A stretch of 64,000 bases of DNA, from NCBI GenBank assembly GCA_037724045.1, contig JBBJOW010000007.1, forward strand, positions 7,324 through 71,323, written 5' to 3'. Below, in pieces: positions 8,107 through 30,328 of this stretch. The stretch is from Solirubrobacteraceae bacterium. GTDB lineage: Bacteria > Actinomycetota > Thermoleophilia > Solirubrobacterales > Solirubrobacteraceae. The number at the start of each line of letters is the position of its first letter. The first letter of the stretch is position 1. Under the pieces are notes generated by a model. The model was not told where the DNA came from. It was given only the letters and a program-made list of their open reading frames with translations, and did not search any database. The translations under genes were made by a program, and so were the position numbers.

Positions 8107-8195
8107 GCATGGTCAATTGATGCCCGTTTGATGCCCGTCGCGCAGCAGCCCACTCCGCACCAAAGACAAGAACGCAGCTGTAGCCCGATTCTCGA

Positions 8196-8241
8196 CAGGG
8201 AGGGCGACGGGACTCGAACCCGCGACCGCCGGGATCACAAC
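8196..8241 (-). repeat. att core repeat (partial 3' copy of tRNA-His)
   Basis: CAGGGAGGGCGACGGGACTCGAACCCGCGACCGCCGGGATCACAAC is identical to 22829-22874. It covers the tRNA from the anticodon loop to the 3' end but lacks the 5' half. Confidence 0.9.
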
Positions 8242-8288: not shown

Positions 8289-9614
8289 CTACGCCGCGAC
8301 ATTTCGCAGTAGCGCGTAGTCGGCTTCAGCCTCACCGAACGGGGCCGATGTTGCCAGTTTTGTTGCCACCCCCGTGTCTACCTTGGTGGACAACTCGGCG
8401 TCGAGGTCGAGCGCGTCGGCCTGGTCGTCGTCGAGCAGATGCACGTACGTCGAGAGCGTGAACGCCGCCGAATGGTGCCCCAGCGTCCGCTGTACCTGCT
8501 TCGCGTTCGCTCCGCGCTCGAACAGCATGGACGCCATCGTGTGCCGGAACGTGTGGAAGCCGGCCCACGAGGCGCCGGCCTCCTCGGCCGCGGGCTTGAG
8601 CACGCGCCGGCGGACGTTGGACACGTTCAGCGACTGCCCATTGAGCGACGGGAACACGAGGTCGTCATCGCCGGGGTACTCCGTCGCCTTGCGGTGCGCG
8701 CGCAGCTCGTCCACGAGCGCCGCAGGGATGCCGACGTCCCGGCGGGACTGCTTCGTCTTCGGCGGGCCGACCCTGCCGCGGACGATGCCGCGGCGGACCT
8801 TGACGTGCGGCCGGGAGCCGTCGAGCTGCAGGTGCCGCCATTGCAACGCGACGACCTCGCTGACCCGGAGCCCGGTCGCGGCGAGCAGCCGGAACATGAC
8901 CCGGTGCCGGCGGTCGACGACGAGCAGGAACGCGGCGAGCTGCTCGCGCGTGAACGCACGCACCGGCCCGTCCTCAAGTTCGTCGTCGACCTTCGGCCGG
9001 TTCGGTAGCTGCGCGCCGTCTGCGGGGTTGTGGCGGATCAGACCCTCCCGCCGCGCGGTGCTCAGGCAAGCGCGCAGCGGGCAGAGCACGTTGCGGACCG
9101 TCTTGTCCGACAGGACCTTCACGGCGTCGTCGGCGAGCGGCCTGGGCGGCTTTGACCGGCGTCCTTCGTCGGTCGCCTTCTCGTGCGCGCGGACGGCGAG
9201 CCTGTACGTGTGCTCGGCCTGGGCGCGGCCGTCGCAGAGCCACCCGACGAACCGGGCGACGTGCAACGGCGTCAACTCGACGAGCTTGAGCTTCGCCGGG
9301 AAGTGCTCGAGCGGGTAGAGCTCGAGCAGCCCGCGGTAGTCCTCGCGGGTCTGGTCACGGAAGCCGCGCTGGCCGCCCTGGTAACGGTCGATCCATTCGC
9401 GGACGTACTCGTGGAGGGTCTGACGGCTCGCGCCGGCCAGCTCCCCCGAGTCTCGCTGAGCGGTGCGCCTCGCCTTCAGGCGCCTCGCTTCGTCGTATGT
9501 GCGGGCGCTCTCCTTGCGCTGGCGGCCGTCCGCGTCGCGGTAGACGATCACGTAGCGGCCGCCGCGCTTGAAGATGCCCGGCGCCTTCGTCTTCTCCATC
9601 GTGGGCGCCGGCAT
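8289..9614 (-). CDS. int: Tyrosine recombinase / phage integrase
   Basis: MPAPTMEKTKAPGIFKRGGRYVIVYRD (SAM-like N-terminal domain)...TGLRVSEVVALQW...AGFHTFRHTMASMLFERG...LGHHSAAFTLSTYVHL, showing the R..HxxR..Y catalytic pattern. I chose the ATG at 9614. Confidence 0.9.
   Translation of the reverse strand: MPAPTMEKTKAPGIFKRGGRYVIVYRDADGRQRKESARTYDEARRLKARRTAQRDSGELAGASRQTLHEYVREWIDRYQGGQRGFRDQTREDYRGLLELYPLEHFPAKLKLVELTPLHVARFVGWLCDGRAQAEHTYRLAVRAHEKATDEGRRSKPPRPLADDAVKVLSDKTVRNVLCPLRACLSTARREGLIRHNPADGAQLPNRPKVDDELEDGPVRAFTREQLAAFLLVVDRRHRVMFRLLAATGLRVSEVVALQWRHLQLDGSRPHVKVRRGIVRGRVGPPKTKQSRRDVGIPAALVDELRAHRKATEYPGDDDLVFPSLNGQSLNVSNVRRRVLKPAAEEAGASWAGFHTFRHTMASMLFERGANAKQVQRTLGHHSAAFTLSTYVHLLDDDQADALDLDAELSTKVDTGVATKLATSAPFGEAEADYALLRNVAA
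8348..8371 (+). repeat. Putative integrase arm-type site (GTTGCCA x2)
   Basis: ATGTTGCCAGTTTTGTTGCCACCC matches 22738-22761 at 23 of 24 positions, in the same orientation. It lies 106 bp from the att core and inside the integrase 3' end. Confidence 0.4.
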
Positions 9615-9814
9615 CAGGCGCCCCTCAGCGCGACGACGTTCTCCGGTGTCGCCGCGTCCACCGGAATCGGAGCGCGATTCGGCAAACACTCCGCGAACCG
9701 CTTCAGACTGGTCCAGAGAGTGTCGTCGAAGCCGTGCGCCTCGTACTCGAGCCGCGCCGCCTCCATGAGGGCGCGGCGGGCGGTCTCCATCGGGTGCTCC
9801 CGGGGTTCGGGCAT
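9614..9814 (-). CDS. Small hypothetical protein, translationally coupled to integrase
   Basis: MPEPREHPMETARRALMEAARLEYEAHGFDDTLW.... A TGATG stop/start overlap occurs at both ends (9612-9616 and 9812-9816). Confidence 0.45.
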   Translation of the reverse strand: MPEPREHPMETARRALMEAARLEYEAHGFDDTLWTSLKRFAECLPNRAPIPVDAATPENVVALRGA

Positions 9815-10134
9815 CAGGACGCCTCCGGCAGCCGCACGAAGCGGGTATCGCCCTCGAAATCGCGCCACGCCCAGTCGGGCAGGCCGTCGTCGATGTGGAC
9901 TGACCAGGACTCCCCGTCCTTCGCAAGCGCGGCGTCGACTGTGGCGACGATCTCGTCGCGAGTCATACCCGCACCTTCGGCGGTGAGCGCGGCGTAGCCG
10001 AGCATCGTCACTGCGGTGTAGGCCTCACCGCGAGCCTGGGCGCTGCGCCGGCTCGCACACGCCTCACACCACGCCTCGGTGTAGTGGCCGGTGAGCAAGT
10101 GCGTGGCCGACGCGAAGCAGGACCCGCACTTCAT
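9814..10134 (-). CDS. Small zinc-ribbon protein (CxxC...CxxC)
   Basis: MKCGSCFASATHLLTGHYTEAWCEACASRR.... ATGA overlap with the upstream ORF at 10131-10134. Confidence 0.5.
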   Translation of the reverse strand: MKCGSCFASATHLLTGHYTEAWCEACASRRSAQARGEAYTAVTMLGYAALTAEGAGMTRDEIVATVDAALAKDGESWSVHIDDGLPDWAWRDFEGDTRFVRLPEAS

Positions 10135-11165: not shown

Positions 11166-11453
11166 TCACGAGTCGTCGCCTTCGACGTAGGGCTTGAGCA
11201 GGTCAACACCCTTGTAGTTGAGCGTCGTCGAGCCGAGGTCTATGTGGTGGCCCTCTGCTTCCAGACGCGCCACCAGCTCTACCTGGCCCAGATGCACGGC
11301 CCGGATCGCGATCCGGGCAACGGCCCCGTACAGCGGGTCGTCGGGGTCGCCGAGGTCGTGGCTCGACAGGCCGCCGCGACTCAGCTCCTCGGAGAAGATC
11401 CGAGCGAGCTGCTGCTCCACGAAGTTCGGGGGCTCATCCGCTTCGTCGTTCAT
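11166..11453 (-). CDS. Hypothetical protein
   Basis: ORF has ATGA overlap with the preceding tape-measure C-terminal ORF. No family recognised. Confidence 0.5.
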   Translation of the reverse strand: MNDEADEPPNFVEQQLARIFSEELSRGGLSSHDLGDPDDPLYGAVARIAIRAVHLGQVELVARLEAEGHHIDLGSTTLNYKGVDLLKPYVEGDDS

Positions 11454-12028
11454 GCCTGGTGCCTGATGTCGCCGTCGACCTGGAAGACCTTCTTGTGCAG
11501 GACGCGCTTGTCGAGCGGCTGGTTCTCAATGGTCGTCGAGAGTTCGATGACCGTCCGTCGCGGGAGCACGGTGCGCAACGAGCGCGGGGAGGGTTCCGAG
11601 TTTGTCGGCGTGGGGCGAAGCATCCGAGACGTTTGGCCCGCGGTGAAGACTCGCGAGCCCATCGGCAGGGCCGCGAGCTCGGGGCCCTGCTCGCCGACGA
11701 TCTGCAGCGGCGAGCGGACGACGCCGCCGGCCGCGAAGCCAGCCAGCCCGAGCAGGCTGTTCTTCGGAAATATGCCGCTGCCGCCGTCGCTTTGGCCGGG
11801 GACGATCGAGAGCGGGTTCTTCGCCACCTTGTCAGCCAACGCGATCGCGTCCTGCGAGAACCGAACCACGTCCTTGAGGGCGTTGATGAGCCACGCGATC
11901 TTTGGGCGAAGCCAGTCGATGGCGCCGCCGACGAACTGCTTGATGTCGCGGCCGGCGTTCATGGCCCACTCACCGGCCTTCTTCAGCGCCGCCCACACCT
12001 GATCGACCTTTCGTTCGGAAGGCGTCAT
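11450..12028 (-). CDS. Tape-measure protein C-terminal segment (separate frame)
   Basis: ...[33 protein letters not shown] resembles the conserved GE.GPE...P.GS.V block near tape-measure C-termini. It overlaps ORF 11970..13631 by 59 nt in another frame. Confidence 0.6.
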
Positions 12029-13631
12029 TCTTCTTGTAGGCGATCACGACGCCGGCCGCCAGGGCAGCGATAGCCACGACGATCAGCCCGATCGGGTTCG
12101 CGGTCAGCGCCGCGTTGAGCAGCCACTGGACACCAGCCCACACCTTCGTGGCGGCGGCCACGGCATTCGTCGCAACCGTATAGGTGATCGTCGCCGCTGC
12201 CTGGCTCCGCAACACCCTGCCGAGAGCGCTCGTTGCATCGGTGAAACCCAGGACCTTGTTGACGGCCATAGCCCCGATGAGGACCGTGATCGCAGCGCTC
12301 GCTCCGGGGACCGTGTTCGTCAGCCAAGCCGACGCCTTGGCCAGCGCGCTCAAGGCCTTGACGTACAGGATCATCGGACCCGACGACCCGAACAGCGGCT
12401 CCATCGCCGCCGCGAGATTCGTGATCGCGGAGACCAACGTCGGCCCGAACGCCTTCGTGGTCCCGCCGACGACCCTCGTCAACACCGGCAGCAGCTCGGT
12501 CCGGATCTGCTTGATCATCGGCGCGAGACTCGACGCGCCGCCGCCGAGACTCCCGAACGACTTGCCGACGGAACCGATCAGCTTGGCGAGCTCATAGACC
12601 GCCGGTTTCGCCTCAGCGAACCACGTTTTCAGCGAGTTCTGGCCGCGCATCGAACCGGTCCACTTCGCGAACCGGCCGGCCGCAGCGTCGATCGACGCGA
12701 GCAGCTCACCGCCGAGACTCGACCCGGCCCGGCCAATGTTCAACAGGCCCCGGGCGACGCTGCCGGTGATCGAGAACAGCCGCGACAGGACGTCACGGGT
12801 CTTCTCGAAGAACGCCGCCAGCTTGCCCGTCTCGCGGCCCGTTCTCGCAGCGGCCTGGATGTTGCGTCCCCAGACCCCCGCGAGGCGAGTCATCCAATCC
12901 ACCAGCGGCCCGGCAGCGATGACGACGTGGCGGAGAGCGTCGCCGAGCCGCAGCCCGGTGCCGCCGAGGCGGCGGATGGTGAGGTTGTTGCGGCCCAGCT
13001 GCTTCTCGAGGTCTTGGCCGAATCCCTTGGAGCCGATGAGCTTTCCGGCGCGCTCGGCGAGCATCCCGATCGACTTGCCGGTGGCGGCCATCCCGGTCCG
13101 GAGGACGCCGAGGTTCCCTGACGCGGCTTTCAGGCCCGCGGTGAGGCCCGGGAACATGCCGCGCTGGATCTGCTTCTGAATGTCGATGACGGGCGCCTTG
13201 AGGCCCTGGAGGACACGAGCGAACCGGCGAGCGGGTGGCGTCAGCGCCGCGAGCTTGTCCGGGTCGAGCTTGTCGTTGAGTCCGCCGACGGCATCGGTGA
13301 CGCCGGCGATGCCGAGCTGGAACGTGGCGAGGCCCTGCTGAGCCGCGGACGCTATCGCCGGGTACGCCGCGAGCGCACCGGCTGCGGGTGCGACCCCGGC
13401 CGCCAACGCGACCCCGCCCGCCGCGGCGGCTGACATCGACTGCGCGAGGAGTCCGACGCCGGTGATCAGTGCGGCTGGCATCACCAGCTTCCGGGTGCTG
13501 CCCACGACACGGTTGACCCGCTCGCCCTCGTCGCCGATGCCGCGCAGCCCGCCCGCGGCCTTGTCGGCGTCACGCTCAAACGAGCGGGCACCTAGCAAGC
13601 GAAGTCTGATTGTTGCCGAACTCTCAGCCAT
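11970..13631 (-). CDS. Phage tail tape-measure protein (main part)
   Basis: 553 aa, Ala/Gly/Leu-rich and helical: [24 protein letters not shown]...[41 protein letters not shown].... It has C-terminal hydrophobic segments, as in the TP901-type tape-measure core. Confidence 0.8.
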
Positions 13632-14147: not shown

Positions 14148-15653
14148 TCAGAGTCGGGTGATGCGGTAGTCCTCGAGCGTCGCCTGCGGCCTGGTCGGCG
14201 CCTGGTCGACGCCCCACATGGCCAACGTGCCGGCGACCAGCGGCGTGACGTCGGCCCGCGAGGCGCGACGCGACCACAACCACGCATCGCCGAGCGGCCG
14301 GATGCTCGCGCCCTCGATCGCCGCCGAGAGCTCGGGCGTGCCCGTATGGCGCACCAGGCCCTGCTCGACCCGGTCGATCAGTTGCCCGCACGCCTCGGCG
14401 TGCTGCTGGGCGCCAACCGGCTCGAGTGTGACGCCGGCATCCGCGAGGCCGCGTACGAGAGCGGCAGTCGGGCTCTTCTCGGCGTACCGGAAGCCGGTCG
14501 AGTCGTGCGCGGCCTGCAGATCAGCCGCGCGCTGCGCTACCCACCCGCAGCCGGGACGGTGCTCGACGACCTCGACGTGCACGAGGCCGTCCGGCCCGGT
14601 GCCGGCGGCCGCGATCGCAGCCGACGACCGGTCGGGGTGAACGTCGATCGCGAAGCTCACCCGTCCCGTGATCGTCGACGTGGAGTCCACCAGCGCCGCC
14701 CAGACGGCGCTCGCGATGATCGCCTCCTCGTCCTCTTCGTCGTCGACGGGACCGGGCCAGTCGCCAATGCCGAGCCGCTCAACCGCGAACGTCCGCCGGC
14801 TGAGCGTCGCCCGCTCCGCGCGGACCGCGTCGAGCGTCATCCGCCCGCCCAAACCGGGGTTGCCCTGCGCCCACGCGTCGACGTCGTCAATGACGTCGTC
14901 AAGGGCATCGAGCGACCCCGGTGCGGAGTGCTCGACGTAGCCGAGCTGAGTCTCCCCGCCCGCCAGCGCCCGGCGGCGGACGCTCGAGAAGGCGTGCCCA
15001 TCCGCGTGGACGGCCCTGTCGACCGCCGAGCCGACGTACGCGATCTGCGCGTTCGGCCGGGCGCTGACAACCGGCAGCAACGCACCCATGACGATTTCCG
15101 GGAGAAACATCGCCTCGTCGAGCGCCAGGAAGTCGCCGCCGAGGCCACGGCCGGCGCCGCCCTTCGTCCTCGCCCGATACTTCAATCGCTGCCCGCCGCT
15201 GACGCGCCGGCCGGTCGGCCCGTGAAGCTCGATCCCCTCGTCGCCGTTCGCGGTCCTCATCGACTTCACCCGGCGCGACAACTCCGGGGTGCCCTCAATC
15301 AGCGCGCGCATCCGACGGAACGCCTCCAGCGCCGTCCCGAACAAGTGCGCCGAATGCACCAAGTCGCGCTCGCCGAAGAGAAACAGGCCCGCGAGCTCGC
15401 GGATCTCGAGCACGACGCCCTTCCCTGACTGGCGGGGGACGCACAGGCCGTACTCGCGGCACGCCCACGCCCCATCCTCGCGCTCGCAAAGCATCGCCGC
15501 GACGGCGGTCTCCTCCCACGGCTCAGGCTCGATACCGGCGACCCTCGCGAGCTCGAGCGCCTCACGGGTCGCCTCCGCGGACCGGCCGGCGTCGTGTGGC
15601 GGCAAATAGAGCAGCCGCGGCTCCTGCACGCCGGTGATGGGCTCAGCCAGCAC
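14148..15653 (-). CDS. terL: Terminase large subunit
   Basis: VPRQSGKGVVLE (Walker A-like), DFLALDEAMF (Walker B), and an RNaseH-like C-terminal nuclease region. GTG start at 15653 overlaps the upstream ORF. Confidence 0.82.
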   Translation of the reverse strand: MLAEPITGVQEPRLLYLPPHDAGRSAEATREALELARVAGIEPEPWEETAVAAMLCEREDGAWACREYGLCVPRQSGKGVVLEIRELAGLFLFGERDLVHSAHLFGTALEAFRRMRALIEGTPELSRRVKSMRTANGDEGIELHGPTGRRVSGGQRLKYRARTKGGAGRGLGGDFLALDEAMFLPEIVMGALLPVVSARPNAQIAYVGSAVDRAVHADGHAFSSVRRRALAGGETQLGYVEHSAPGSLDALDDVIDDVDAWAQGNPGLGGRMTLDAVRAERATLSRRTFAVERLGIGDWPGPVDDEEDEEAIIASAVWAALVDSTSTITGRVSFAIDVHPDRSSAAIAAAGTGPDGLVHVEVVEHRPGCGWVAQRAADLQAAHDSTGFRYAEKSPTAALVRGLADAGVTLEPVGAQQHAEACGQLIDRVEQGLVRHTGTPELSAAIEGASIRPLGDAWLWSRRASRADVTPLVAGTLAMWGVDQAPTRPQATLEDYRITRL

Positions 15654-16026
15654 GGCGCAGCTCCCTCGCGCGCGCCAACTCGTCGACCCGATCGGCCTCG
15701 GTTGCCGGCGGCGCCAGCTCCCGCAACCGGTCGACGCTCTCCCGCAACTCGCGGTGAAGAGCGGCCTTCGACGTCGCCGAATTGTACGGGTGCGCAATCT
15801 CGAACGCGAGGGCGACGATCCCAGCCGCCAACGGCGAGTCCGCCAGGACCGCATCGCGCTCGCGGATGGCTTCGACCTCGCGCAACGCAGCGTCGATGAC
15901 GTCCGTGCGCGCGTTGTCGGCCAGCGGCCCGTCGAACATCTCGCGGGCGGCATCGACGGGCATCTCCACCAGCGCCCGGCTGTTGAACGGGCCGAACACG
16001 CTCACCACGCGCGCATCCTTAGACAC
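15643..16026 (-). CDS. Putative terminase small subunit / packaging accessory protein
   Basis: Called mainly on position, immediately upstream of and overlapping terL. It is helical and 127 aa long. GAGGAGG lies upstream of GTG 16026. No decisive motif. Confidence 0.4.
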   Translation of the reverse strand: MSKDARVVSVFGPFNSRALVEMPVDAAREMFDGPLADNARTDVIDAALREVEAIRERDAVLADSPLAAGIVALAFEIAHPYNSATSKAALHRELRESVDRLRELAPPATEADRVDELARARELRRAG

Positions 16027-16351
16027 GACCCCTCCTCGCGACGCAGCCGGCGCACGAGCACACGAACCACTCGCATGACCAGGCACGGTGCACGAGCTCG
16101 GCCGGCGACAGATTCACGCCCGCTGCGACCGGCAGCTTCTCCCGGTTGCAGCCGCGGTGAGCCGGCCCGAGGTACAGCGACCTGTCCGCGTCGTCATGGT
16201 CGAGGTCCCACGGCTCAGCAGGCCCGATCAGCCGGCCGCAACGAGAGCACGCCACCGTCCCCGCAGCCACCTTCGGCGCCCATTGCGCGCGCAACCGCTT
16301 GTGCGCCGCTCCGTAGCCACGAGCGGCCGTCTTCGCGAGGCCTTGCGTCAC
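16019..16351 (-). CDS. HNH endonuclease
   Basis: GYGAAHKRLRAQWAPKVAAGTVACSRCGRLIGPAEPWDLDHDDADRSLYLGPAHRGCN shows CxxC plus the D-H...H..CN HNH pattern typical of phage HNH next to terminase. The start is uncertain (GTG 16351). Confidence 0.75.
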   Translation of the reverse strand: MTQGLAKTAARGYGAAHKRLRAQWAPKVAAGTVACSRCGRLIGPAEPWDLDHDDADRSLYLGPAHRGCNREKLPVAAGVNLSPAELVHRAWSCEWFVCSCAGCVARRGRV

Positions 16352-16640
16352 CGCACGGCACCTATGTGGCGACTTCTGAGCGCCGCAGAGAGAGGGAACG
16401 ACTGCGGAGTCGCGGCCAGTGCCGCTGGTCCGGGACGGGACCCTCCCCCCTGGGGTCGAGTGTGGGGATGGGGGGATGCCGTGCCGGGGGCGTTGACGTC
16501 GGCGGTGATCAGGAACCGGGTGTCGGTGTTCGTCGGCGCGCCAGACGGGTTCCTCGACGCGCTCGCTGCGGCCACCGGTAAGAGTCGTCCGGAGCTGAAG
16601 TTTCGCCGGCAGTTCGCGGAGCGCTTCCCGACCACCGAGG

Positions 16641-16701
16641 CATTGGCTACGGCCGTAGCCAATGTGGCGAACCGCCCGGACGTCGACGGACGTCCGGGCG
16701 G
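16641..16701. other. Structured non-coding DNA (24-bp perfect palindrome + 13-bp-stem hairpin); candidate cos/pac or terminator region
   Basis: CATTGGCTACGGCCGTAGCCAATG (16641-16664) is a perfect palindrome. CCGCCCGGACGTC-gacg-GACGTCCGGGCGG (16672-16701) forms a hairpin. Both lie in the 453-bp gap between the capsid and HNH genes. Confidence 0.35.
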
Positions 16702-16804
16702 CTCGAGTCCCCCGCGACCGCGACTGCACGAATGCAATCGCGGCGCCTTCCCGGCGGTAAGGAGGGTCCGCCGGTGAAGATTGTGGTCGGTGGTCCGCAT
16801 CGCG

Positions 16805-18154
16805 CTACGCCAGTGCGACCTTCGAGAACGCGGCCGGGTAGTAGACGGCCAGCGCGGCGCGTAATTCGGCCAAGATAGTCACCTTGTTAAAGGTGAAGTC
16901 CTGGCCGTCCGCATCGCTGACGAGCACGTTCACGCCCTCCCGGATGAGCAGCTGCGCACCGATCTGAAAGGCGCCGACGAGGGCAGTGCCTTCTGGGATG
17001 GCGGCGGTCGTGATGACGGGGACGCCCCACATCCGTTCGCCGGTGACGTCGAAGGGACCGTTGGAGAAGTAGTCCCCGGAGCCGGCGGACTTGAGCAGCA
17101 GTGACTTCTTCCAGTCGAGCGGGTTGAGGATGATGGCGTTGGGGTCGGCGCCGGCAACCTTGACCTGGGTGATGCCGCTGAGGATTTGCTCGGTCGGCAG
17201 GTTCCCGGCGGTGAACGCGACTACGCCGACGCCGGGCGTGGTCAGGATGCCCTGGATGTTCGGGGTCGTGCCGTTGCCGGCGAGGATCTCGGCCTGGAGC
17301 CGGCGGGCGACGCCGTAGCGCAGGCGGTTCTCGAGGACGCTCGCGAACGCAGGGACGTCGGCGAGCACCTGCTTGCGGACTTTGAACCAGTGCGCGATCG
17401 TCGCTGCTTCGGCGTTGGCATCGGTGTAGACGCCGACGCCTTCGGGCTTGAGTGTGCCCTCCGTCGTTTCGGCGGCGGTGTCAAACGAGCCGTTCTCAAC
17501 GGTGTACGGGACCGAGCTGCCTTCCATGGTGCCGGTCGCGATGACGTCGAGGACGGTGAGCTGTTGGCGTAGCTGGGGTGCGACTCCGCCGTAGTCGTCG
17601 CGGCGCATATTCGGGGTGCCGGTGATGTCGGCCTTGAAGGCGTCGCGGGCGGCGTCGGCGCTGGCGATCTCACCGAGCGCGATTCGGCCGACGCGGGCGC
17701 TGCTGTTGCCAGCCTTGCGGATCTGGTCGCGCAGCGCCGGGTCCTCGAGCACCTTGCCGGCGGCCCACTTGCCGTCGCTGTCGGCGGGGTCTGTGCTCGA
17801 GAGCTTCTTGAGCAGCTCGACCTGCAGCTCCTGAGCGATGCTCAGGCGAGCCTCAGCGTCCTTGACGTCCTTGACGGCAGCCGCTGCGGTCTTGAACTCG
17901 GGGCTGCCGGTCCGCTCGCCCCCGTCGACGTAGGCCTTCCGAGTCTGGTCGGCGGTGGTCTGCTTGGACTTGATCTCATCCCGGAGGTTGCGGACGTCCT
18001 GCTCGGTGTCCTTGAACTGCTTGCTGAGGTGTTTGTCGTCGTGGAGGCAGGTCGGACCGTTGGAGCGCTCGATGCGTCCGGTGATCGCCGGCCAGGTCGG
18101 CGCGAGGAGCTCGGCGAGCTCGAGCGCGGCGGTGAGGTTGCGGTTGGTGGTCAT
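16805..18154 (-). CDS. HK97-family major capsid protein with N-terminal coiled-coil (scaffold/delta-like) domain
   Basis: N-terminal charged helical region (DVRNLRDEIKSKQTTADQTRKAY...AEARLSIAQELQVELLKKL). This is followed by LTVLDVIATGTMEGSSVPY...ATIAHWFKVRKQVLADVP...ILNPLDWKKSLLLKSAGSGDYF...MWGVPVITTAAIPEGTALVGAF, typical of HK97 capsids. Confidence 0.88.
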   Translation of the reverse strand: MTTNRNLTAALELAELLAPTWPAITGRIERSNGPTCLHDDKHLSKQFKDTEQDVRNLRDEIKSKQTTADQTRKAYVDGGERTGSPEFKTAAAAVKDVKDAEARLSIAQELQVELLKKLSSTDPADSDGKWAAGKVLEDPALRDQIRKAGNSSARVGRIALGEIASADAARDAFKADITGTPNMRRDDYGGVAPQLRQQLTVLDVIATGTMEGSSVPYTVENGSFDTAAETTEGTLKPEGVGVYTDANAEAATIAHWFKVRKQVLADVPAFASVLENRLRYGVARRLQAEILAGNGTTPNIQGILTTPGVGVVAFTAGNLPTEQILSGITQVKVAGADPNAIILNPLDWKKSLLLKSAGSGDYFSNGPFDVTGERMWGVPVITTAAIPEGTALVGAFQIGAQLLIREGVNVLVSDADGQDFTFNKVTILAELRAALAVYYPAAFSKVALA

Positions 18155-18156
18155 GC

Positions 18157-18525
18157 TCAGGCCTCCTGGCCGTTGGTGGTGTGGGTGGCTGCCTCGAGCA
18201 GGTCGTCGAGGCGATGACCGCGCGCCAACAGGGCGGCGGTGATGTACTCAGTGAGGTGGGCGTCGGCTTCGTGGCCGAGCATCTGCGCGCGGCCGATCTC
18301 GTCGCGGCGCCCGATCGCGTCGTCGAGGTCGATCTCGCCGTGGTGCAGACTGAGCGCAAGGTCGGCGGCGGCCTGCAGGATCGTGGCGGTGTGCCTGGTG
18401 AGACCTTGCTGGATCGATGAGATCCGTTCGAACTCGACATCGTCGAGCTTCGCCGGGTCTTCCGGCAGAGTGCCGAGCGCGTCGACGACGAACTCCAGCG
18501 GGTCGGCGAGGGTGGTCTGGTTCAT
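18157..18525 (-). CDS. Hypothetical protein
   Basis: ORF ends 3 nt before the capsid start. Acidic and helical. No family recognised. Confidence 0.5.
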   Translation of the reverse strand: MNQTTLADPLEFVVDALGTLPEDPAKLDDVEFERISSIQQGLTRHTATILQAAADLALSLHHGEIDLDDAIGRRDEIGRAQMLGHEADAHLTEYITAALLARGHRLDDLLEAATHTTNGQEA

Positions 18526-18782
18526 GCGGCCTCCTGGGCTTGGTCGTGGTTCAGGTGTTCACGGATGGCGGCTCGGACGGCGCCGGCCGCGGCGTTCTGC
18601 GTCTCGCGGTCGGCGATGGCGCGGAGGCCGCGGATGACGACGAGCCCACGGTCTTCATGGGCGACAAGGGTCACGAGGCGCCCGTTGGCGAGACGGACGT
18701 CGAGGTCTGCGATCAGCTTGCCGCGGTGCTCGGCGAAGCGTGACCACGCCACAAGGGCCGGCGGTGCGAGGGTCGTCGTCAC
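18522..18782 (-). CDS. Hypothetical protein
   Basis: GTG 18782 gives a GTGA overlap with the upstream gene, and there is an ATGA overlap downstream. Confidence 0.42.
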   Translation of the reverse strand: MTTTLAPPALVAWSRFAEHRGKLIADLDVRLANGRLVTLVAHEDRGLVVIRGLRAIADRETQNAAAGAVRAAIREHLNHDQAQEAA

Positions 18783-19819
18783 GCGCTGGCCTCGTCGGAA
18801 GTAACGAGGTAACGGCCGGTAACGACCTCTACGCACGAGGCAGTGGCCTCTTCTCGCGCACGTAATAACCCTGTACCTGCCGTTACCTCGTTACCTGGCC
18901 AGTCTGCCGGCACGAGGAAAAACGACCAGTTGAGAGTCCCGCCGAAACCGGGCTGTGTGGCCTTGACCCGGCCGCTGGCGTTGGGCTTGGTCCAGCCAAC
19001 GCGAAGCAGGCGCTGAGCGATCTTGCCTTCGCTGAGTCCCGGCTCGCGGCCGCGGACGAACCCATACATGTGACCGCTGCGCACGAAGCGCACCCCGGCA
19101 CTGTCGACGAGAACCATCGTCATGGCGGCGCCGGCCTCCTCGCGAGCATTGTCGAGCGACCGGAGATCGCTGAACGCCTCCCAGCGGTCCGCCTGGTCGC
19201 TCATGTCGACCGGCCGCGTCTGGGCAGCCTGGAGGTAGCTCTGGCCCCAGTCGAGGGCGAGGTCGTCGTCGGAGACGGTCTGCTGCCGCCGTGCGACCTG
19301 TCGCAGCAGTGCGACGGCTTGGAGGGCGTCGGCAGCCGTGATCTTCGGCACGACGCCGGCGCACGCTGCAAGCTCGGCTCGCAGGACCGTGAGATGCGCC
19401 ATCTCCCTGAGGGATTCGAACTCCAGCCACTCGCCGTTCGAGAGCTCGAGCTGGGCGCTCGCTCTGGCGCCTTGACCGGTTGTGACCGCGGACTTGACGG
19501 TCATGCCCATGACGGTCAGGCCGAGCAGGTCGGCAAGCTTGGCTCCCGCCTCGTCGGCACCGAGTTCAACCACTTGCGCCGCGACTTGGCCGGCGGGCCG
19601 CGCTTTGGCTTCAGCCCGGTCGAGATCGTCCGCGATGCGCGCGGCGTCGCACTGCGAACACGAAATGGTGATGCCGTCCAAGGCCGCGACGGCCGTCAGC
19701 TCGCCCGGGCAGCTCGGACAAGTCGTGCTGAGGCTGCCGTTCTCGCCGACGTAGACGCGGCCGGAGCGGCGCAGCTGGTCGCGGAAGTCGTCGAGCGTGA
19801 GGCCGAACGAGCGGCTCAT
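18779..19819 (-). CDS. Zinc-ribbon protein, possible replication/initiation partner of the Top6A-like protein
   Basis: MSRSFGLTLDDFRDQLRRSG...TTCPSCPGELTAV...ISCSQCDAARI (CxxC...CxxC). ATGA overlap with the upstream Top6A-like gene. I recognise no primase or helicase motifs. Confidence 0.55.
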   Translation of the reverse strand: MSRSFGLTLDDFRDQLRRSGRVYVGENGSLSTTCPSCPGELTAVAALDGITISCSQCDAARIADDLDRAEAKARPAGQVAAQVVELGADEAGAKLADLLGLTVMGMTVKSAVTTGQGARASAQLELSNGEWLEFESLREMAHLTVLRAELAACAGVVPKITAADALQAVALLRQVARRQQTVSDDDLALDWGQSYLQAAQTRPVDMSDQADRWEAFSDLRSLDNAREEAGAAMTMVLVDSAGVRFVRSGHMYGFVRGREPGLSEGKIAQRLLRVGWTKPNASGRVKATQPGFGGTLNWSFFLVPADWPGNEVTAGTGLLRAREEATASCVEVVTGRYLVTSDEASA

Positions 19820-20745
19820 CCGACGGGCCCTCCAGACGGGAGGCCGAGCAGTTCGGCGCGATCGAGGTGCTCGCGCCGGATCTCTTCTCGGTAGCGATGG
19901 ACGTCCAGGGTGTCCTCGATCGCATCCCGGACCAGAGCGGCCAGCATGTCGGGCGGCAGCGCCTCCAACTGGCACGTCCCGCCATCCCAGCCACGAGAGC
20001 GACCGTCGCTCGCCTTCACGGGCGACGTCGGCAGCGAGAACACGTCCACTTGCTCTCTCGTCAGGGCCACTCGTATGGCATCCAGCCGGGTCGTCTGGAC
20101 CGTTCGATCCTCGCGAACGAACGCCGAAGCATCCTCGGCGATGGCAGCGAAGATCGACTCTCCCGACGGGTCGTAGTCGCCGACGTGCAACATGACCGTC
20201 GGGACGCTCGACCGCAGCGCCCGGTTGGCGAGCGTCCTCACCGCCGACAACGATGCGAAGCCACTGGCCGAGTACACGGGGACGCTGAAGTCCTCCGCGA
20301 CCCGGGCGAGTTGCCCGACCATGCCGGCCGCCTCGCTCCAGAGCTCCAGCCGCTGGGGCTGACCGGCCTGCCGGTCGCGCCGGTACTCGCGAGCGCGACG
20401 AGCAGTGTCGTCGCGGAAGTCCGCGACGCTGCCGTAGTAGTCGGCGTGCATCGTCATCACGCCGTCGTCGCGGATCGCGTCAAACGGAAGCACCTTCGCG
20501 CGCCGCGCCCGGTTCAGATGCTCTCCGAGGCGTGCGTAGGCCTGCTCGGTCTTGTCCAGCTTCCCGGCGCCGACCAGCGAGTAGTAGATCTGCCTCACCG
20601 TCAACGGGAGATGGTCTTCATAGCGCCGGAGAACGTCCTCTACATCGAGTAGAAGCTCGCGGGTCGGCGCGTGCGGACTCCAATCGGCATAGCCACGCGG
20701 ACGCCGCCGCCCAGCACTTTCACGGCCCGCCGTGACAAGGGTCAT
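19816..20745 (-). CDS. Standalone Spo11/TopoVI subunit A-like protein (5Y-CAP + Toprim; 'Mini-A'-like)
   Basis: LTVRQIYYSLV (R-x-I-Y-Y catalytic-tyrosine motif of Top6A/Spo11), LELWSEAAGM (Toprim acidic residue), and MLHVGDYDPSGESIF (Toprim D-x-D-P-x-G-x-x-I motif). It is 309 aa, and no B-subunit/GHKL gene is nearby. Confidence 0.7.
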   Translation of the reverse strand: MTLVTAGRESAGRRRPRGYADWSPHAPTRELLLDVEDVLRRYEDHLPLTVRQIYYSLVGAGKLDKTEQAYARLGEHLNRARRAKVLPFDAIRDDGVMTMHADYYGSVADFRDDTARRAREYRRDRQAGQPQRLELWSEAAGMVGQLARVAEDFSVPVYSASGFASLSAVRTLANRALRSSVPTVMLHVGDYDPSGESIFAAIAEDASAFVREDRTVQTTRLDAIRVALTREQVDVFSLPTSPVKASDGRSRGWDGGTCQLEALPPDMLAALVRDAIEDTLDVHRYREEIRREHLDRAELLGLPSGGPVG

Positions 20746-21005
20746 GCGGCGACTCGAAGGTAGCCGTCGAGATCTTCGCGCCGGTACAGGTTTCTCGCGC
20801 CGTCCTTGTAGACGGCCAAATGCCCTTGGCTCGTGAGGTCAAAGACGCGCTGGCGGCTGGCCCGGAGGTACTCGGCGGCCTCATCCGTCGTCAGCCACGG
20901 GGTGCTGATTCGGGTCGCGACGGCCGAGGACGTCAGGCCGCGACGCTCGAGCTCATCGGCGACGGCCGCTGCGATCGCGGCGGCGATGTCCACTGGCGGG
21001 CTCAT
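20742..21005 (-). CDS. Excisionase-family (MerR-like HTH_17) DNA-binding protein
   Basis: WLTTDEAAEYLRASRQRVFDLTSQGHLAVYKDGARNLYRREDLDGYL. Confidence 0.75.
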   Translation of the reverse strand: MSPPVDIAAAIAAAVADELERRGLTSSAVATRISTPWLTTDEAAEYLRASRQRVFDLTSQGHLAVYKDGARNLYRREDLDGYLRVAA

Positions 21006-21303: not shown

Positions 21304-21882
21304 TTACGTCCAGTCGAATCCGTTCTCCTCAGCGATGGCGCTGAGCCGGCTCGAGTCCAAGGCGTCGTCGCCTACCAAGAGGCTGAGTGTGCCGAGGTAT
21401 ACGCGGGCTAGGCCCGCCTCGCCTGTCAGGAAGACCGTCGCTCCGATAGCTGAATGGTGTTCGACGAGAAGCTGAAGATCTAGAGCCACGGCGTCCTCGT
21501 CATGACCGGGGACGAACCCCCCGAGGAAGGCCTGGGCCGTCATTGTCTCCCAGCGCGCCGGGATGCGAGACACCGCACCGCTCGGCAGAACCTCCACTGC
21601 CTCATCTAGTTCGGTGTGGCCGGTGCCGCGCAGCACGATCCGCGCGGGCTCGAGGTCTCCGATGTGCCCTGCCTCGAGCACCTGGCGGAGCAGTTCGCTC
21701 CAGGCGCCAACGTCCGCTGCAATCTCAGGCTCCAGCCTCTGGCGTTCGTTGTGAATGGCCACTCGAACGGCCTCGCTGCCGGACACCTTGCTGCGCGTCC
21801 GGCGCTGCATGTGGCGGCGAGTCTCGTCGGTCTCGCTAAGGGTGTCCTCGCCAAAGCGATAGTTGGTGATCGGTGTGGCCAC
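21304..21882 (-). CDS. Hypothetical protein (first gene leftward of the divergent control region)
   Basis: GTG 21882 with AGGA upstream. VATPITNYRFGEDTLSETDETRRHMQRRTRSKVSGSEAVRVAIHNERQRLE.... No family recognised. Confidence 0.5.
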   Translation of the reverse strand: MATPITNYRFGEDTLSETDETRRHMQRRTRSKVSGSEAVRVAIHNERQRLEPEIAADVGAWSELLRQVLEAGHIGDLEPARIVLRGTGHTELDEAVEVLPSGAVSRIPARWETMTAQAFLGGFVPGHDEDAVALDLQLLVEHHSAIGATVFLTGEAGLARVYLGTLSLLVGDDALDSSRLSAIAEENGFDWT

Positions 21883-22051
21883 GCCCGAGATCCTACCACA
21901 GCCCGTAAAGACAGGCAGCCACACTGCGCGATCTGAGGCACCTGGACCGTTGACAGGCCGACACGCACGCGCGTCGGCGCGCACAAAATTGTCCAGCAAA
22001 ACGGGTCAAATTTGCGTAGCGCTAGCGGCTATCTCGCTAGGGTCGGAAGCG

Positions 22052-22300
22052 GTGAAACGGAATCCCGTCCGCTACAAGCAGAACGGCGACAAGCGACCCT
22101 CTGTCAAGGACCAGGCCCTCGACGCCCTTATCGAAGAGGCCTGGAATCAGGAGTGGGGATGCCGCGTCGGCGGTAATAAGCACGTCATGTGCTACCCGCC
22201 CGACGGAAGCCGAATGATCCCGATTCCGTCGACACCGAGCGACTGGCGCACGGTCAAGAACAAGGCCGCCCAGATGAAACGCGGCGGCCTGGAGATCTAG
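22052..22300 (+). CDS. HicA/YcfA-like small protein (tentative)
   Basis: ...WGCRVGGNKHVMCYPPDGSRMIPIPSTPSDWRTVKNKAAQMKRGGLEI resembles the HicA pattern G-x-H-x(3-6)-P...P.H...gt...i.k..g. It is the only plus-strand gene in the island. Confidence 0.38.
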   Translation: MKRNPVRYKQNGDKRPSVKDQALDALIEEAWNQEWGCRVGGNKHVMCYPPDGSRMIPIPSTPSDWRTVKNKAAQMKRGGLEI

Positions 22301-22737: not shown

Positions 22738-22761
22738 ATGTTGCCAGTTTCGTTGCCACCC
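22738..22761 (+). repeat. Putative integrase arm-type site (GTTGCCA x2)
   Basis: ATGTTGCCAGTTTCGTTGCCACCC lies 67 bp from the att core and is the partner of 8348-8371. Confidence 0.4.
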
Positions 22762-22828
22762 GCACCACATTCCCCCCATTGGGGGAACGCCTAGAACGGC
22801 GAGAACCGCGCCGTAGCGCGGTCCTCTG

Positions 22829-22874
22829 CAGGGAGGGCGACGGGACTCGAACCCGCGACCGCCGGGATCACAAC
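22829..22874 (-). repeat. att core repeat inside the intact tRNA-His
   Basis: Identical to 8196-8241. Confidence 0.9.
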
Positions 22875-22905
22875 CCGGAGCTCTACCGACTGAGCTACGC
22901 CCTCC
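22832..22905 (-). tRNA. tRNA-His (anticodon GTG), with encoded G-1
   Basis: Reverse complement G-GAGGGCG-TA-GCTC-AGTCGGTA-GAGC-T-CCGGG-TTGTGAT-CCCGG-CGGTC-GCGGG-TTCGAGT-CCCGT-CGCCCTC-C folds as a cloverleaf. The extra 5' G pairs with C73. CCA is not encoded. Confidence 0.95.
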
Positions 22906-28191: not shown

Positions 28192-29532
28192 ATGTCCGAC
28201 CGTTATCAGCAGCTCATCGAGTCCCCGCCGGGCCGCCTGCTCGCCGGGCAGCTCGGGCTGCCGAAGCCGACCCGGCTGCGCCGCTACGAGCCGGGCCAGG
28301 CACTTGTCGAGGGCGACGCGCTGGTCAATGGCGCGCCCGGCGGCCGGCTCGTCGCAGTGGCGACGACAGCCCTGAAGACCGCCAAGGTCAAGACGGCGAA
28401 GACCGTCGGCGGCGACGACGACGGCTACGGCGCCGTGGTCTACGACGCCTCCGCGATCGCCTCCTCGGGGGACCTGCACCACCTGTACGCCTTCTTCCAC
28501 GCCGCGATCGCCCATGTGGCGCCGTCGGGCCGCGTGATCGTGCTCGGCACGCCGCCCGAGCAGTCGGACTCGCCGGCGATGGCGATCGCCCAGCGGGCGC
28601 TCGAGGGCTTCACCCGCGCGGTGGCCAAGGAGCTGCGCGGCGGCGCGACGGCGCAGCTCGTCTACGTCGCCCCCGGCGCGGAGGCCAACCTCGCTTCAAC
28701 CCTGCGCTTCCTGGCCTCCGCGAAGTCGGCCTACGTCGACGCCCAGGTGATCCGCATCGGCGCCGGCGCGTCGAGCGATCCCGCCGACTCCGAGCAGCCG
28801 CTCGCGGGCCGCGTCGCGCTGGTCACCGGCGCCTCGCGCGGCATCGGCGAGTCGATCGCCACCACGCTCGCGCGCGACGGCGCGCACGTGATCGGTCTCG
28901 ACATCCCGGCGGCAGGCGAGCAGCTGGCGGCGGTGGCCAACCGGGTCGGCGGCACCGCGCTGCAGCTCGACATCACCGCCTCCGATGCGCCCGCCCGGCT
29001 TGTGGAGCACGTGCAGGAGCGCCACGGGGGCCTCGACGTCATCGTCCACAACGCGGGCATCACGCGCGACAAGACGCTCGCGCGCATGGACGACGCGCAG
29101 TGGGACGGGCTGATGGCGGTCAACCTCGTCGCCCCGGAGCGCCTCACCGACGCGCTGCTCGCGGCGAGCGCGCTTCGACCTGGCGGGCGGATCGTCATGG
29201 TGTCCTCGATCAGCGGCATCGCCGGCCAGCGCGGGCAGACCAACTACTCGACCTCCAAGGCCGGCGTCATCGGCCTGACGGCGGCGTACGCGCCGCTGGT
29301 GGCCGAACGTGAGCTGACCATCAACGCCGTCGCCCCCGGCTTCATCGAGACGCAGATGACCGCGGCAATGCCGTTCGCGACGAGGGAGGTCGGCCGGCGC
29401 CTGAACTCCCTCTCCCAGGGCGGCCTGCCCGTCGACGTCGCGGAGACGGTGGCGTGGATGGCCTCCCCGGGATCGGGCGGCGTCAACGGCAACGTGGTCC
29501 GCGTCTGCGGACAGAACCTGCTCGGTGCTTAG
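28192..29532 (+). CDS. Two-domain SDR, 3-oxoacyl-[ACP] reductase FabG4-like
   Basis: 446 aa. C-terminal SDR domain: ALVTGASRGIGESIA...NAGITRD...SSISGIAGQRGQTNYSTSKAG. The N-terminal non-canonical Rossmann domain matches the high-molecular-weight FabG type. Confidence 0.88.
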   Translation: MSDRYQQLIESPPGRLLAGQLGLPKPTRLRRYEPGQALVEGDALVNGAPGGRLVAVATTALKTAKVKTAKTVGGDDDGYGAVVYDASAIASSGDLHHLYAFFHAAIAHVAPSGRVIVLGTPPEQSDSPAMAIAQRALEGFTRAVAKELRGGATAQLVYVAPGAEANLASTLRFLASAKSAYVDAQVIRIGAGASSDPADSEQPLAGRVALVTGASRGIGESIATTLARDGAHVIGLDIPAAGEQLAAVANRVGGTALQLDITASDAPARLVEHVQERHGGLDVIVHNAGITRDKTLARMDDAQWDGLMAVNLVAPERLTDALLAASALRPGGRIVMVSSISGIAGQRGQTNYSTSKAGVIGLTAAYAPLVAERELTINAVAPGFIETQMTAAMPFATREVGRRLNSLSQGGLPVDVAETVAWMASPGSGGVNGNVVRVCGQNLLGA

Positions 29533-30328
29533 CGCCTACGCGAAGGCGGCCGTCAAGCTCGTCGGATTCGTGGGCGGCGGCGACGCGCTGCCCGAGGACG
29601 AGCTCACCCACGCGGGCATCGAGGTCGACCGCGAGCGCCTCACCGCCTATCAGAAGGTCTGCGGCTTCGGGGTGGGCGACACCCTTCCGGCCACCCACCC
29701 ACACATGTTCGCGTTCCCGCTGGCGATGGAGCTGATGACACGGCTGTCGTTTCCGTTTGGGGTCATCGGGCTCGTGCACATCTCGAACGACATCGAGCAG
29801 CTGCGGCCGATCACCGCGGATGAGGTCCTCGACATCCGTGTGCGCACGGCCGACCTGCGCGACCACGAGCGCGGGCGCCAGTTCGACGTCGTCGCGTCGG
29901 CGGAGGTGGCCGGCGAAACGGTGTGGCGCTCGGAGTCCACCTACCTGCGTCGCGAGGGCGGCGGCGAAGCCAAGGGCGGGCGCAGCGAACCGCCCGAGGC
30001 GAGCGCGATCTGGAGGATTCCCGGCGATCAGGGCCGTCGCTACGCGGGCGTGTCGGGCGACAACAACCCGATTCACCTGTACCCGCTCACGGCGCGCCTG
30101 TTCGGCTTCCCGAAGCCGATCGCCCACGGCATGTGGGTCAAGGCTCGCTGCCTCGCAGCCCTCGACGGCCATCTGCCCGACGCCTTCACGGTCAGCGTCC
30201 GCTTCAAGCTCCCGGTGCTCCTGCCGTCCAAGGCGGGCTTCGCCACCTGGACCAGCGGCGAGCAGCGTGAGTTCGCCGTCCACGACACGCGCAGCGGCAA
30301 GCCGCACGTGTCGGGCACCGTGACCTGA
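29525..30328 (+). CDS. MaoC-like (R)-hydratase/dehydratase, HtdX-like
   Basis: ...YAGVSGDNNPIHLYPLTARLFGFPKPIAHGMW (hotdog hydratase motif). GTG start overlaps the reductase stop. Confidence 0.85.
   Translation: MLSAYAKAAVKLVGFVGGGDALPEDELTHAGIEVDRERLTAYQKVCGFGVGDTLPATHPHMFAFPLAMELMTRLSFPFGVIGLVHISNDIEQLRPITADEVLDIRVRTADLRDHERGRQFDVVASAEVAGETVWRSESTYLRREGGGEAKGGRSEPPEASAIWRIPGDQGRRYAGVSGDNNPIHLYPLTARLFGFPKPIAHGMWVKARCLAALDGHLPDAFTVSVRFKLPVLLPSKAGFATWTSGEQREFAVHDTRSGKPHVSGTVT

Follow-up and report, generated by a model that had tools for sequence, protein, structure and literature searches.

Mini-A proteins were described by Takahashi et al. (2019; PMC7671362) as chains of about 300 amino acids (aa) that unite a 5Y-CAP and a Toprim domain, are encoded by viruses and proviruses, and occur without a B subunit. 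They carry the motifs RxxY/FY, E and DxDxxG, no function was assigned to them, and a T2BI box of the form xWELDAL sets them apart from Topo VI and Topo VIII (PMC7671362). Here we analyse a gene of this class in a 64,000 nt stretch of contig JBBJOW010000007.1 (assembly GCA_037724045.1, a metagenome-assembled Solirubrobacteraceae genome; positions 7,324 to 71,323 of the forward strand; hereafter the window), where it lies in a small integrated island that also encodes a capsid protein. A preliminary description of the window, made from the sequence alone, had taken the gene for a stand-alone relative of Top6A and Spo11 and had noted that orphan Mini-A proteins occur on mobile elements; the latter statement agrees with the published survey (PMC7671362).

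One residue of the T2BI box is of particular concern in what follows. In Top6A, the T2BI glutamate (E340 of M. jannaschii) hydrogen-bonds the arginine of the RxxxY motif as well as the catalytic tyrosine (PMC7671362). A 2026 cryo-electron microscopy study describes the pair E342-R102 of M. mazei as an electrostatic clasp by which the tyrosine is kept from the Toprim site (PMC13040014). Topo VI carrying the E342Q substitution is much more prone to cleavage, and the clasp is conserved in Spo11 (PMC13040014).

Results

A stand-alone protein of the Mini-A type with an intact-looking active site

The gene is read from the minus strand, and its landmarks are listed here in window coordinates.

19816..20745, minus strand: Mini-A-type (Top6A/Spo11-like) gene, 309 aa; open reading frame (ORF) with an ATG start, encoding a short protein with 5Y-CAP and Toprim domains
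20581..20595, minus strand: RQIYY, residues 51-55, from the translation; R51 is the clasp/DNA-binding arginine and Y55 the catalytic tyrosine (5Y-CAP)
20332..20334, minus strand: E138, Toprim acidic residue within LELWSEAAGM, from the translation; aligned to the IET glutamate of Top6A
20161..20181, minus strand: GDYDPSG, residues 189-195 (D190/D192), Toprim DxDxxG metal-binding motif, from the translation; aligned to DGDPYG of Top6A
19957..19977, minus strand: T2BI box TCQLEAL with Q259, from the translation; a variant of xWELDAL (Mini-A) and RxExxA (Topo VI)

Profile searches and a predicted structure indicate that the product is almost certainly a stand-alone A-subunit-type member of the type IIB topoisomerase/Spo11 superfamily, with an active site that looks catalytically intact and with viral Mini-A proteins as its closest relatives. 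In PHROGs the protein matches family 6247, 'DNA topoisomerase', over residues 30-293 (E=1.5e-39). Plain tblastn searches recovered 76 phage records at E values down to 1e-25, with identity below 60% in all 76 and, among the matches listed, 27-31% in 40 phage records; 'DNA topoisomerase' is a common annotation for the genes concerned. Because of these phage matches and an end-to-end alignment with phage Mini-A proteins at 27-30% identity (tblastn E 1e-16 to 1e-25), the 309 aa protein is a Mini-A in the broad sense, and the gene falls within a class that is already known.

An AlphaFold2 model built from a 75-sequence alignment reached a pLDDT of 91.3 and a pTM of 0.86 (a single-sequence model, with a pLDDT of 38.8, was discarded). 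When this model was compared with the PDB by Foldseek, the best eight matches, which were also the sole significant ones (E 1.6e-6 to 8e-3), were all Topo VI A; the chains matched belong to 9O7O, 9O0G, 9O8P, 1D3Y, 2Q2E and 2ZBK. The alignments span approximately 300-356 columns, and therefore both the winged-helix 5Y-CAP domain and the Toprim domain are covered. Foldseek against the viral models of BFVD gave no significant match.

At the sequence level, searches of the PDB with the single protein or with a profile of its close homologues gave no match. A more diverse profile reached M. jannaschii Top6A (1D3Y) at E=0.017; in this alignment E138 falls on the IET glutamate, and D190/D192 fall on DGDPYG. 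Profile-profile comparison with the Top6A Toprim alignment produced an identical residue pairing (probability 9%, E=0.0037) and stopped short of the T2BI box. Furthermore, the spacing of R51 and Y55 equals that of R99 and Y103 in M. jannaschii Top6A. Pfam returned no match at E<=0.1, including for TP6A_N and TOP6A-Spo11_Toprim, the NCBIfam model for Topo VI A (NF003335) gave a faint match in the Toprim region (E=0.004; 16 bits versus a cut-off of 424), and neither Pfam nor NCBIfam revealed extra domains.

The preliminary description had proposed a Foldseek comparison with Top6A/Spo11 and an alignment of the Tyr, Glu and DxD positions as ways of checking the assignment, and both comparisons bear it out. 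It had also named two outcomes that would speak against a Mini-A-like identity, placement in an unrelated Toprim family lacking the 5Y-CAP domain and misalignment of the tyrosine and DxD positions; what we found instead is a 5Y-CAP fold in which these positions align with those of Topo VI A. Other Toprim proteins were considered and rejected. Foldseek matches to the Toprim of DnaG-type primases are weak and partial (E>=0.04) and Pfam finds neither Toprim_N nor DnaG. For the Toprim nucleases OLD, Wadjet JetD/MksG and Gabija GajA there is no Pfam OLD match and no PADLOC match. Membership in a defence system was likewise rejected, as the protein matches none of 5,027 PADLOC models.

Translation showed that the residues given in the preliminary description for three hallmark motifs (RQIYY at 51-55, E138 and D190/D192) are right. 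In 75 close homologues R51, Q52, Y55, E138, D190, D192, S194 and G195 are invariant, and residue 54 is mostly F rather than Y. We also assembled 116 other loci with relatives of the gene, 80 from genomes and 36 from viral contigs. Among these homologues R51, E138, D190 and D192 are kept in 116 of 116 and Y55 in 115. As judged from these alignments, conservation of the catalytic residues is far beyond chance. The NCBI annotation of the identical protein is 262 aa long and begins at ORF residue 48. Because residues 8-47 are kept across the 75 homologues, the 309 aa form is the better call and the annotated one appears to be truncated.

The window protein resembles described Mini-A proteins in its size and content (309 aa, with 5Y-CAP and Toprim domains only), in carrying all of the RxxY/FY, E and DxDxxG motifs, and in being encoded on a virus-like integrated element with no B subunit gene nearby. 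It differs from them in the T2BI box, which reads TCQLEAL instead of xWELDAL (W to C, clasp E to Q, and D to E). With Topo VI A and Spo11 the protein has in common the two-domain fold, a tyrosine with an equally spaced upstream arginine, a Toprim E and DxD that align residue for residue, and a C-terminal box of the ExxAL type. In contrast to Topo VI A, which has approximately 370-400 aa, the 309 aa protein has no N-terminal B-binding segment, and its tyrosine therefore stands at residue 55 rather than at approximately 103-106. It also differs from Topo VI A and Spo11 in that its island encodes no Top6B or Top6BL partner with which an A2B2 assembly could form, and in that it scores below the curated Pfam and NCBIfam family thresholds. 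Its likeness to Top6A is visible to profile methods alone (E 0.004-0.017), whereas plain tblastn suffices to find phage Mini-A proteins (E to 1e-25). Finally, where Topo VI A has the clasp glutamate (E340 of M. jannaschii, E342 of M. mazei), the window protein has a glutamine.

A large sub-branch with a changed clasp residue

The glutamine is not peculiar to the window. We use the label 'Q-type' for the sub-branch of Mini-A whose T2BI box reads x-Q-x-E-A-L. This box is present in 91 of the 116 homologues, namely those of every genome locus and of the closer viral contigs, and a box of the form x-E-x-D-A-L is present in 21, including distant viral contigs. The two forms separate cleanly, and the Q/E and E/D positions covary. 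All five isolate-phage Mini-A proteins examined have WELDAL-type (x-E-x-D-A-L) boxes, and among the sequences examined WELDAL-type boxes are confined to the distant viral set. In the clade of the window protein Q259 is invariant, as is R51.

An exhaustive profile search returned 10,374 cluster representatives (50% identity) at E<=1e-3, of which 1,595 reach E<=1e-30. Among the best 150 representatives, 113 or more have a Q-x-E-A box, and none matches the WELDAL-type pattern. Q-type genes were found in small tRNA-integrated islands with integrase, HK97 capsid, HNH and terminase genes, on Streptomyces plasmids and in uncultivated viral contigs, and none of the five isolate-phage Mini-A proteins examined is of this type. 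A search of the literature for the sub-branch found no description of it. By these sequence criteria, the window gene is part of a large, so far undescribed sub-branch of Mini-A with an altered clasp residue.

Motif alignment shows half of the clasp pair in place: the arginine is kept as R51, and the glutamate is replaced by the invariant Q259. The equivalence of Q259 and E342 is drawn from the motif, because the profile-profile comparison ended before the T2BI box. The Q-type Mini-A proteins, which have no B subunit, may thus be naturally unclasped.

Mini-A neighbourhoods in islands, phages and plasmids

The genome loci in our sample come from Thermoleophilia, Rubrobacteria, many Alphaproteobacteria, Chloroflexota and Bacillota. 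When 20 proteins of the window island were compared with the 116 loci, only Mini-A was found to recur throughout, and the integrase and the HTH protein recurred in part. TerL and most of the other island proteins are not common to these loci, with one exception each for the capsid and the zinc-ribbon protein, and the idea that the rest of the island is conserved alongside Mini-A was rejected on this basis. Clustering and annotation of the neighbouring genes gave the following counts: HTH_17 proteins at 60 of the 116 loci, tyrosine integrases at 49, capsid proteins at 29, HNH proteins at 25, TerL at 20 and portal proteins at 16. A primase/helicase class (D5_N/SF3, AAA_25, DnaG-like and Prim-Pol) is present at 31 or more of the loci, a lower bound obtained with our own hidden Markov models, usually within 3 kb; for loci with full flanks, it lies no more than 3 kb from Mini-A in 18 of 62.

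Nine related islands could be delimited by att repeats of 38-47 nt at tRNA genes and measure 6.6-12.1 kb. In seven of the nine no primase or helicase class was detected, as is also the case for the island in the window. Two gene orders illustrate the settings in which the gene is found. Loci from Thermoleophilia typically read PrimPol - AAA_25 - Mini-A - excisionase (Xis) - integrase (Int) - tRNA (the order from PrimPol to Int is seen in L014), and those from Rhodobacterales read att - small ORF - Mini-A - TerL - HNH - capsid. In isolate phages, Mini-A stands among genes for ligase, RecA-like ATPase, RecB exonuclease, helicase, ThyX and a polymerase exonuclease subunit. In phage JG054, for example, Mini-A has a DNA ligase gene on one side and genes for a RecA-like ATPase, RecB exonuclease and SF2 helicase on the other. 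On the evidence of these neighbourhoods, Mini-A is probably part of a module for DNA replication, recombination or processing. The one long protein that came to light as a possible domain fusion, P0228 (823 aa), joins a D5_N/SF3 helicase (residues 21-482) to a Mini-A with a garbled DxD; it is probably a frameshift merger of neighbouring genes rather than a true fusion and was set aside.

Plasmids also carry the gene. The 15,151 bp circular plasmid NZ_CP009289 of Paenibacillus durus DSM 1735 (L125) encodes a Mini-A at 9144-10037 on the minus strand, with a canonical WELDAL box, followed by an ORF-free gap of approximately 900 bp, and it has no other enzyme-sized ORF. Its genes, all on one strand, include those for a Zot-like ATPase, small hydrophobic coat-like proteins and a secreted protein of 519 aa. 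In gene content, the plasmid looks like the replicative form of an inovirus, and Mini-A is its only evident DNA enzyme. The 36,955 bp circular conjugative plasmid pNO33 of Streptomyces noursei (L126) has a Q-type Mini-A (VQAEAL) at 29094-29927 on the minus strand that is annotated as hypothetical.

In all, Mini-A homologues were found on 45 Streptomyces plasmids. For records above 100 kb, most of them linear, the outer 15% of the record contains 16 of 21 homologues, in a tally that ignores plasmid relatedness. These end-proximal homologues are approximately 4-35 kb from an end, and several records have two Mini-A copies, possibly in terminal inverted repeats. On the 713 kb linear plasmid NZ_CP109267 (L127), the distance from Mini-A to the end is 11 kb, and the gene lies beyond one with a helicase-associated domain.

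The coupled gene run

In the window, the neighbours of Mini-A on the minus strand form a tightly spaced series.

20742..21005, minus strand: HTH_17/excisionase-family (Xis-like) protein, 87 aa (Pfam HTH_17 1.8e-10; TIGR01764 3.4e-11)
18779..19819, minus strand: 346 aa protein with an N-terminal C4 zinc ribbon; no significant family match
18522..18782, minus strand: small ORF, 86 aa from a GTG at 18782; no family match
18157..18525, minus strand: small ORF, 122 aa, which stops 2 nt ahead of the capsid start; no family match
16805..18154, minus strand: major capsid protein of the HK97 fold, extended at its N terminus by approximately 190 aa (Pfam Phage_capsid 5.6e-32; PHROG 10 4.7e-41; TIGR01554 1.3e-26)

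The 4 nt ATGA and GTGA overlaps reported in the preliminary description are all present. The stop of the HTH gene overlaps the start of Mini-A (ATGA, 20745-20742), Mini-A overlaps the zinc-ribbon gene (ATGA, 19819-19816), the latter overlaps the 86 aa ORF (GTGA, 18782-18779), and this in turn overlaps the 122 aa ORF (ATGA, 18525-18522). The spacer between the 122 aa ORF and the capsid ATG at 18154 is TGAGCATG, which makes it 2 nt long and not the 3 nt given earlier. No terminator-like site was seen on the minus strand from 21005 to 16805. The overlaps thus uphold the proposed coupled unit that ends at the capsid gene, and in this run of translationally coupled genes Mini-A comes second, after the Xis-like HTH gene and ahead of the zinc-ribbon gene, the two small ORFs and the capsid gene.

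In contrast, the earlier suggestion of a joint module of Mini-A and the zinc-ribbon protein is not supported. The zinc-ribbon protein is rare, with eight homologues among 5.8 billion proteins, it is found at one of the 116 Mini-A loci, and its homologues occur in islands without Mini-A (L119-L121); for these reasons the two are not a conserved pair. The closest relative of the zinc-ribbon protein heads an operon in an integrase-bearing island that has no Mini-A, capsid or terminase, and one homologue is itself devoid of the zinc ribbon.

The host island

The island is a 14,633 bp unit delimited by 46 nt att cores at a tRNA-His gene. Its remaining features are given below.

8196..8241, no strand: att core copy of 46 nt, an exact repeat identical to 22829-22874; distal boundary
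22829..22874, no strand: att core copy, exact repeat, overlapping 44 nt at the 3' end of tRNA-His (22831-22904, minus strand)
8289..9926, minus strand: tyrosine integrase (Pfam Phage_integrase 2.5e-23; PHROG 1 8.9e-68)
11970..13631, minus strand: tape-measure-like protein, 553 aa (PHROGs 4197 and 6090, E about 1e-25)
14148..15953, minus strand: terminase large subunit (TerL; PHROG 9 1e-49)
16019..16729, minus strand: HNH endonuclease (PHROG 1808 1.2e-14)

The true start of the HNH gene is probably internal, because the HNH motif lies at residues 132-198 of the maximal ORF. All recognised island genes are on the minus strand. Scans of the island ORFs against Pfam, PHROGs, NCBIfam and PADLOC found no GHKL ATPase (B subunit), primase, helicase or Rep, as the preliminary description had stated, and scans against Pfam, PHROGs and NCBIfam found no portal, protease, tail or tail tube genes.

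The size of the island is consistent with a phage satellite or a decayed prophage, to judge from its sequence. Set beside capsid-forming phage satellites (cfPICI) and small actinobacterial prophage-like elements, it is similar in being a 14.6 kb tRNA island bounded by att sites and in combining an integrase, an Xis-like protein, an HK97 capsid, an HNH protein and a terminase with no recognisable tail set. It differs from these elements in having no recognised portal, protease or Pri-Rep/AlpA module and in carrying a tape-measure-like gene. In the library searched, no paper was found that links cfPICI with a topoisomerase-like gene.

Several further observations concern the island itself. A 192 aa ORF within 11450-13631 on the minus strand has weaker matches to tape-measure PHROGs (E 0.0016 and 0.0095), and a gene with a TMP_3 domain is present in the capsid-less island L119, with which the window shares the zinc-ribbon protein. 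Near the tRNA-proximal att, the C-terminal 60 aa of a plus-strand ORF (21863-22300) resemble a HicA-like toxin (PADLOC PDLC02910, E=1e-9), for which no partner antitoxin was identified. A 24 nt direct repeat, ATGTTGCCAGTTT[T/C]GTTGCCACCC, occurs at 8348-8371 and 22738-22761 with 23 of 24 positions matching, approximately 70-110 nt inside the att cores; the two copies may be candidate arm-type binding sites for the integrase. Outside the att core, the 34 nt downstream of the tRNA 3' end are approximately 65% alike at the two boundaries (8162-8195 versus 22795-22828), and attP therefore seems to mimic the native 3' flank of the tRNA. GC skew switches sign, from about -0.08 to about +0.12, at approximately 16000-17000 near the HNH/capsid junction, although all island genes lie on a single strand. 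A possible non-coding stretch within the long HNH ORF (16019-16729) might contain a cos or ori site.

Discussion

A probable replication or DNA-processing role for Mini-A

From the fold, the catalytic residues, the anatomy of the island and the recurrent neighbourhoods described above, we infer the following course of events. After excision of the island, a Mini-A dimer would bind island DNA, Mg2+ held by E138, D190 and D192 would activate a phosphodiester bond, and attack by Y55 would create a 5'-phosphotyrosyl link and a free 3'-OH. Since there is no B subunit and a glutamine takes the place of the restraining clasp glutamate, cleavage would probably be ATP-independent and self-licensed. The most likely use of such an activity would be in the replication or DNA-processing module of the element. 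Taking identity and role jointly, we assign a probability of roughly 0.55 to the reading that the protein is a Mini-A with a role in replication or DNA processing.

The version that we prefer is one in which a nick or cut at an origin starts rolling-circle (sigma) replication and yields concatemers for packaging by the HNH-terminase machinery. We propose this origin nickase tentatively, as possible rather than probable. By functional analogy only, the expected chemistry would resemble that of HUH Reps and relaxases, metal-dependent tyrosine transesterases that form a 5'-phosphotyrosyl link and leave a free 3'-OH, and that are similarly placed in the early modules of small circularising elements. 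The folds are unrelated, that of Mini-A consisting of Toprim and winged helix. For the archaeal skuldviruses, which also have no other replication genes, mini-A was independently proposed to be a rolling-circle initiator, and the authors of that work draw an equal analogy with HUH Reps and relaxases. Support for a replication role also comes from the Paenibacillus plasmid, where Mini-A is the sole evident DNA enzyme and lies beside an ORF-free region.

A broader form of this proposal is that Q-type proteins are self-licensed, clasp-open initiators of a non-HUH kind of rolling-circle replication, serving small capsid islands, some plasmids and inovirus-like replicons. The island carriers would then represent a widespread, undescribed class of capsid-encoding islands in Actinomycetota and Alphaproteobacteria. 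We regard both of these extensions as rather doubtful.

Several points weigh against a replication-initiating Mini-A. To our knowledge, biochemical activity has not yet been shown for any Mini-A. Related loci that also encode a primase or helicase number at least 31 of 116, and large lytic phages with complete replisomes carry the gene as well. Mini-A is therefore not generally the sole initiator, nor, given the loci that have both, is it simply a substitute for a primase or helicase. A search for iterons or origin-like repeats at 20.9-22.9 kb of the window found nothing above chance-level short repeats, and the island may have no autonomous replication at all. The real initiator could be the zinc-ribbon protein or another unannotated island ORF. 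As for the clasp, Q259 is matched to E342 through a two-step motif alignment (ExxAL versus QxEAL), and the covarying E261 may rebuild the contact.

Alternative roles

An alternative that we consider somewhat unlikely is that Mini-A is an accessory replication or recombination factor (a decatenase, a supercoil relaxase, a resolver of intermediates or a break-maker), with initiation supplied by another island protein such as the zinc-ribbon protein, by a helper phage or by the host. An accessory role would agree with the co-occurrence of Prim-Pol, AAA_25, D5-like SF3 helicase or DnaG-like primase at many related loci, with the recombination-gene setting in phage JG054, with the retention of Mini-A by phages that have full replication modules, and with the finding that the zinc-ribbon family holds the post-Xis position in islands without Mini-A. 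However, type IIB strand passage requires the ATPase B subunit, which is absent here, and most of the delimited small islands show no other replication enzyme. The zinc-ribbon protein, with its eight homologues, has no recognisable catalytic domain.

It is improbable that Mini-A is a weapon, that is, an unclasped nuclease directed at the DNA of a helper phage, a competitor or the host for purposes of interference, takeover or defence. Satellite-like islands often carry interference genes, the window island encodes a HicA-like toxin, the nucleases of Wadjet and Gabija are related Toprim dimers, and the clasp residue, which curbs cleavage by Topo VI and Spo11, is a glutamine here. Set against this, none of the PADLOC defence models matches the protein, and its catalytic tyrosine is strictly conserved, whereas Wadjet-type nucleases are hydrolytic. 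Furthermore, the gene resides in an early operon beside Xis and is kept in the DNA-metabolism modules of lytic phages.

Least of all do we favour a role alongside Xis and Int in excision or integration, or one in the formation or capping of DNA ends through Spo11-like protein-linked 5' ends. In its favour, an HTH_17 (Xis-like) gene is adjacent at 60 of the 116 loci, the trio Mini-A - Xis - Int recurs by tRNA genes in Thermoleophilia islands, and homologues on large Streptomyces plasmids cluster near the ends, some possibly in both terminal copies, but a tyrosine integrase and Xis require no further nuclease, Mini-A occurs in lytic phages without integrases, and the end-proximity statistic takes no account of plasmid relatedness. 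Adjacency to Xis and Int carries little weight, because the order Int - Xis - replication is the usual modular layout of such elements.

Significance

Within the Topo VI/Spo11 superfamily, Mini-A alone works without a B subunit. Three things are new here: a large Q-type sub-branch with a changed clasp residue, its home in very small capsid-encoding islands (14.6 kb at tRNA-His in the window, 6.6-12.1 kb in related islands), and the placement of Mini-A in a replication/recombination module, both in related loci and in phages. The change from Glu to Gln in the clasp suggests, in a concrete form open to experiment, how an A subunit could be active on its own. The islands, at 6.6-14.6 kb, provide minimal settings, often with no candidate for a DNA-replication enzyme other than Mini-A. 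Cultured carriers exist in Roseovarius sp. 217, Tropicimonas isoalkanivorans DSM 19548, Paracoccus alkenifer DSM 11593, Sphingopyxis witflariensis DSM 14551, Streptomyces noursei (pNO33) and Paenibacillus durus DSM 1735, and the function is therefore addressable by genetics.

If Mini-A is not an initiator nickase, the window gene is an ordinary member of a known orphan family. If it is, the finding would bear on the origin of type IIB topoisomerases and Spo11, and a Q-type initiator would shed light on the role of the A subunit before the B subunit was acquired.

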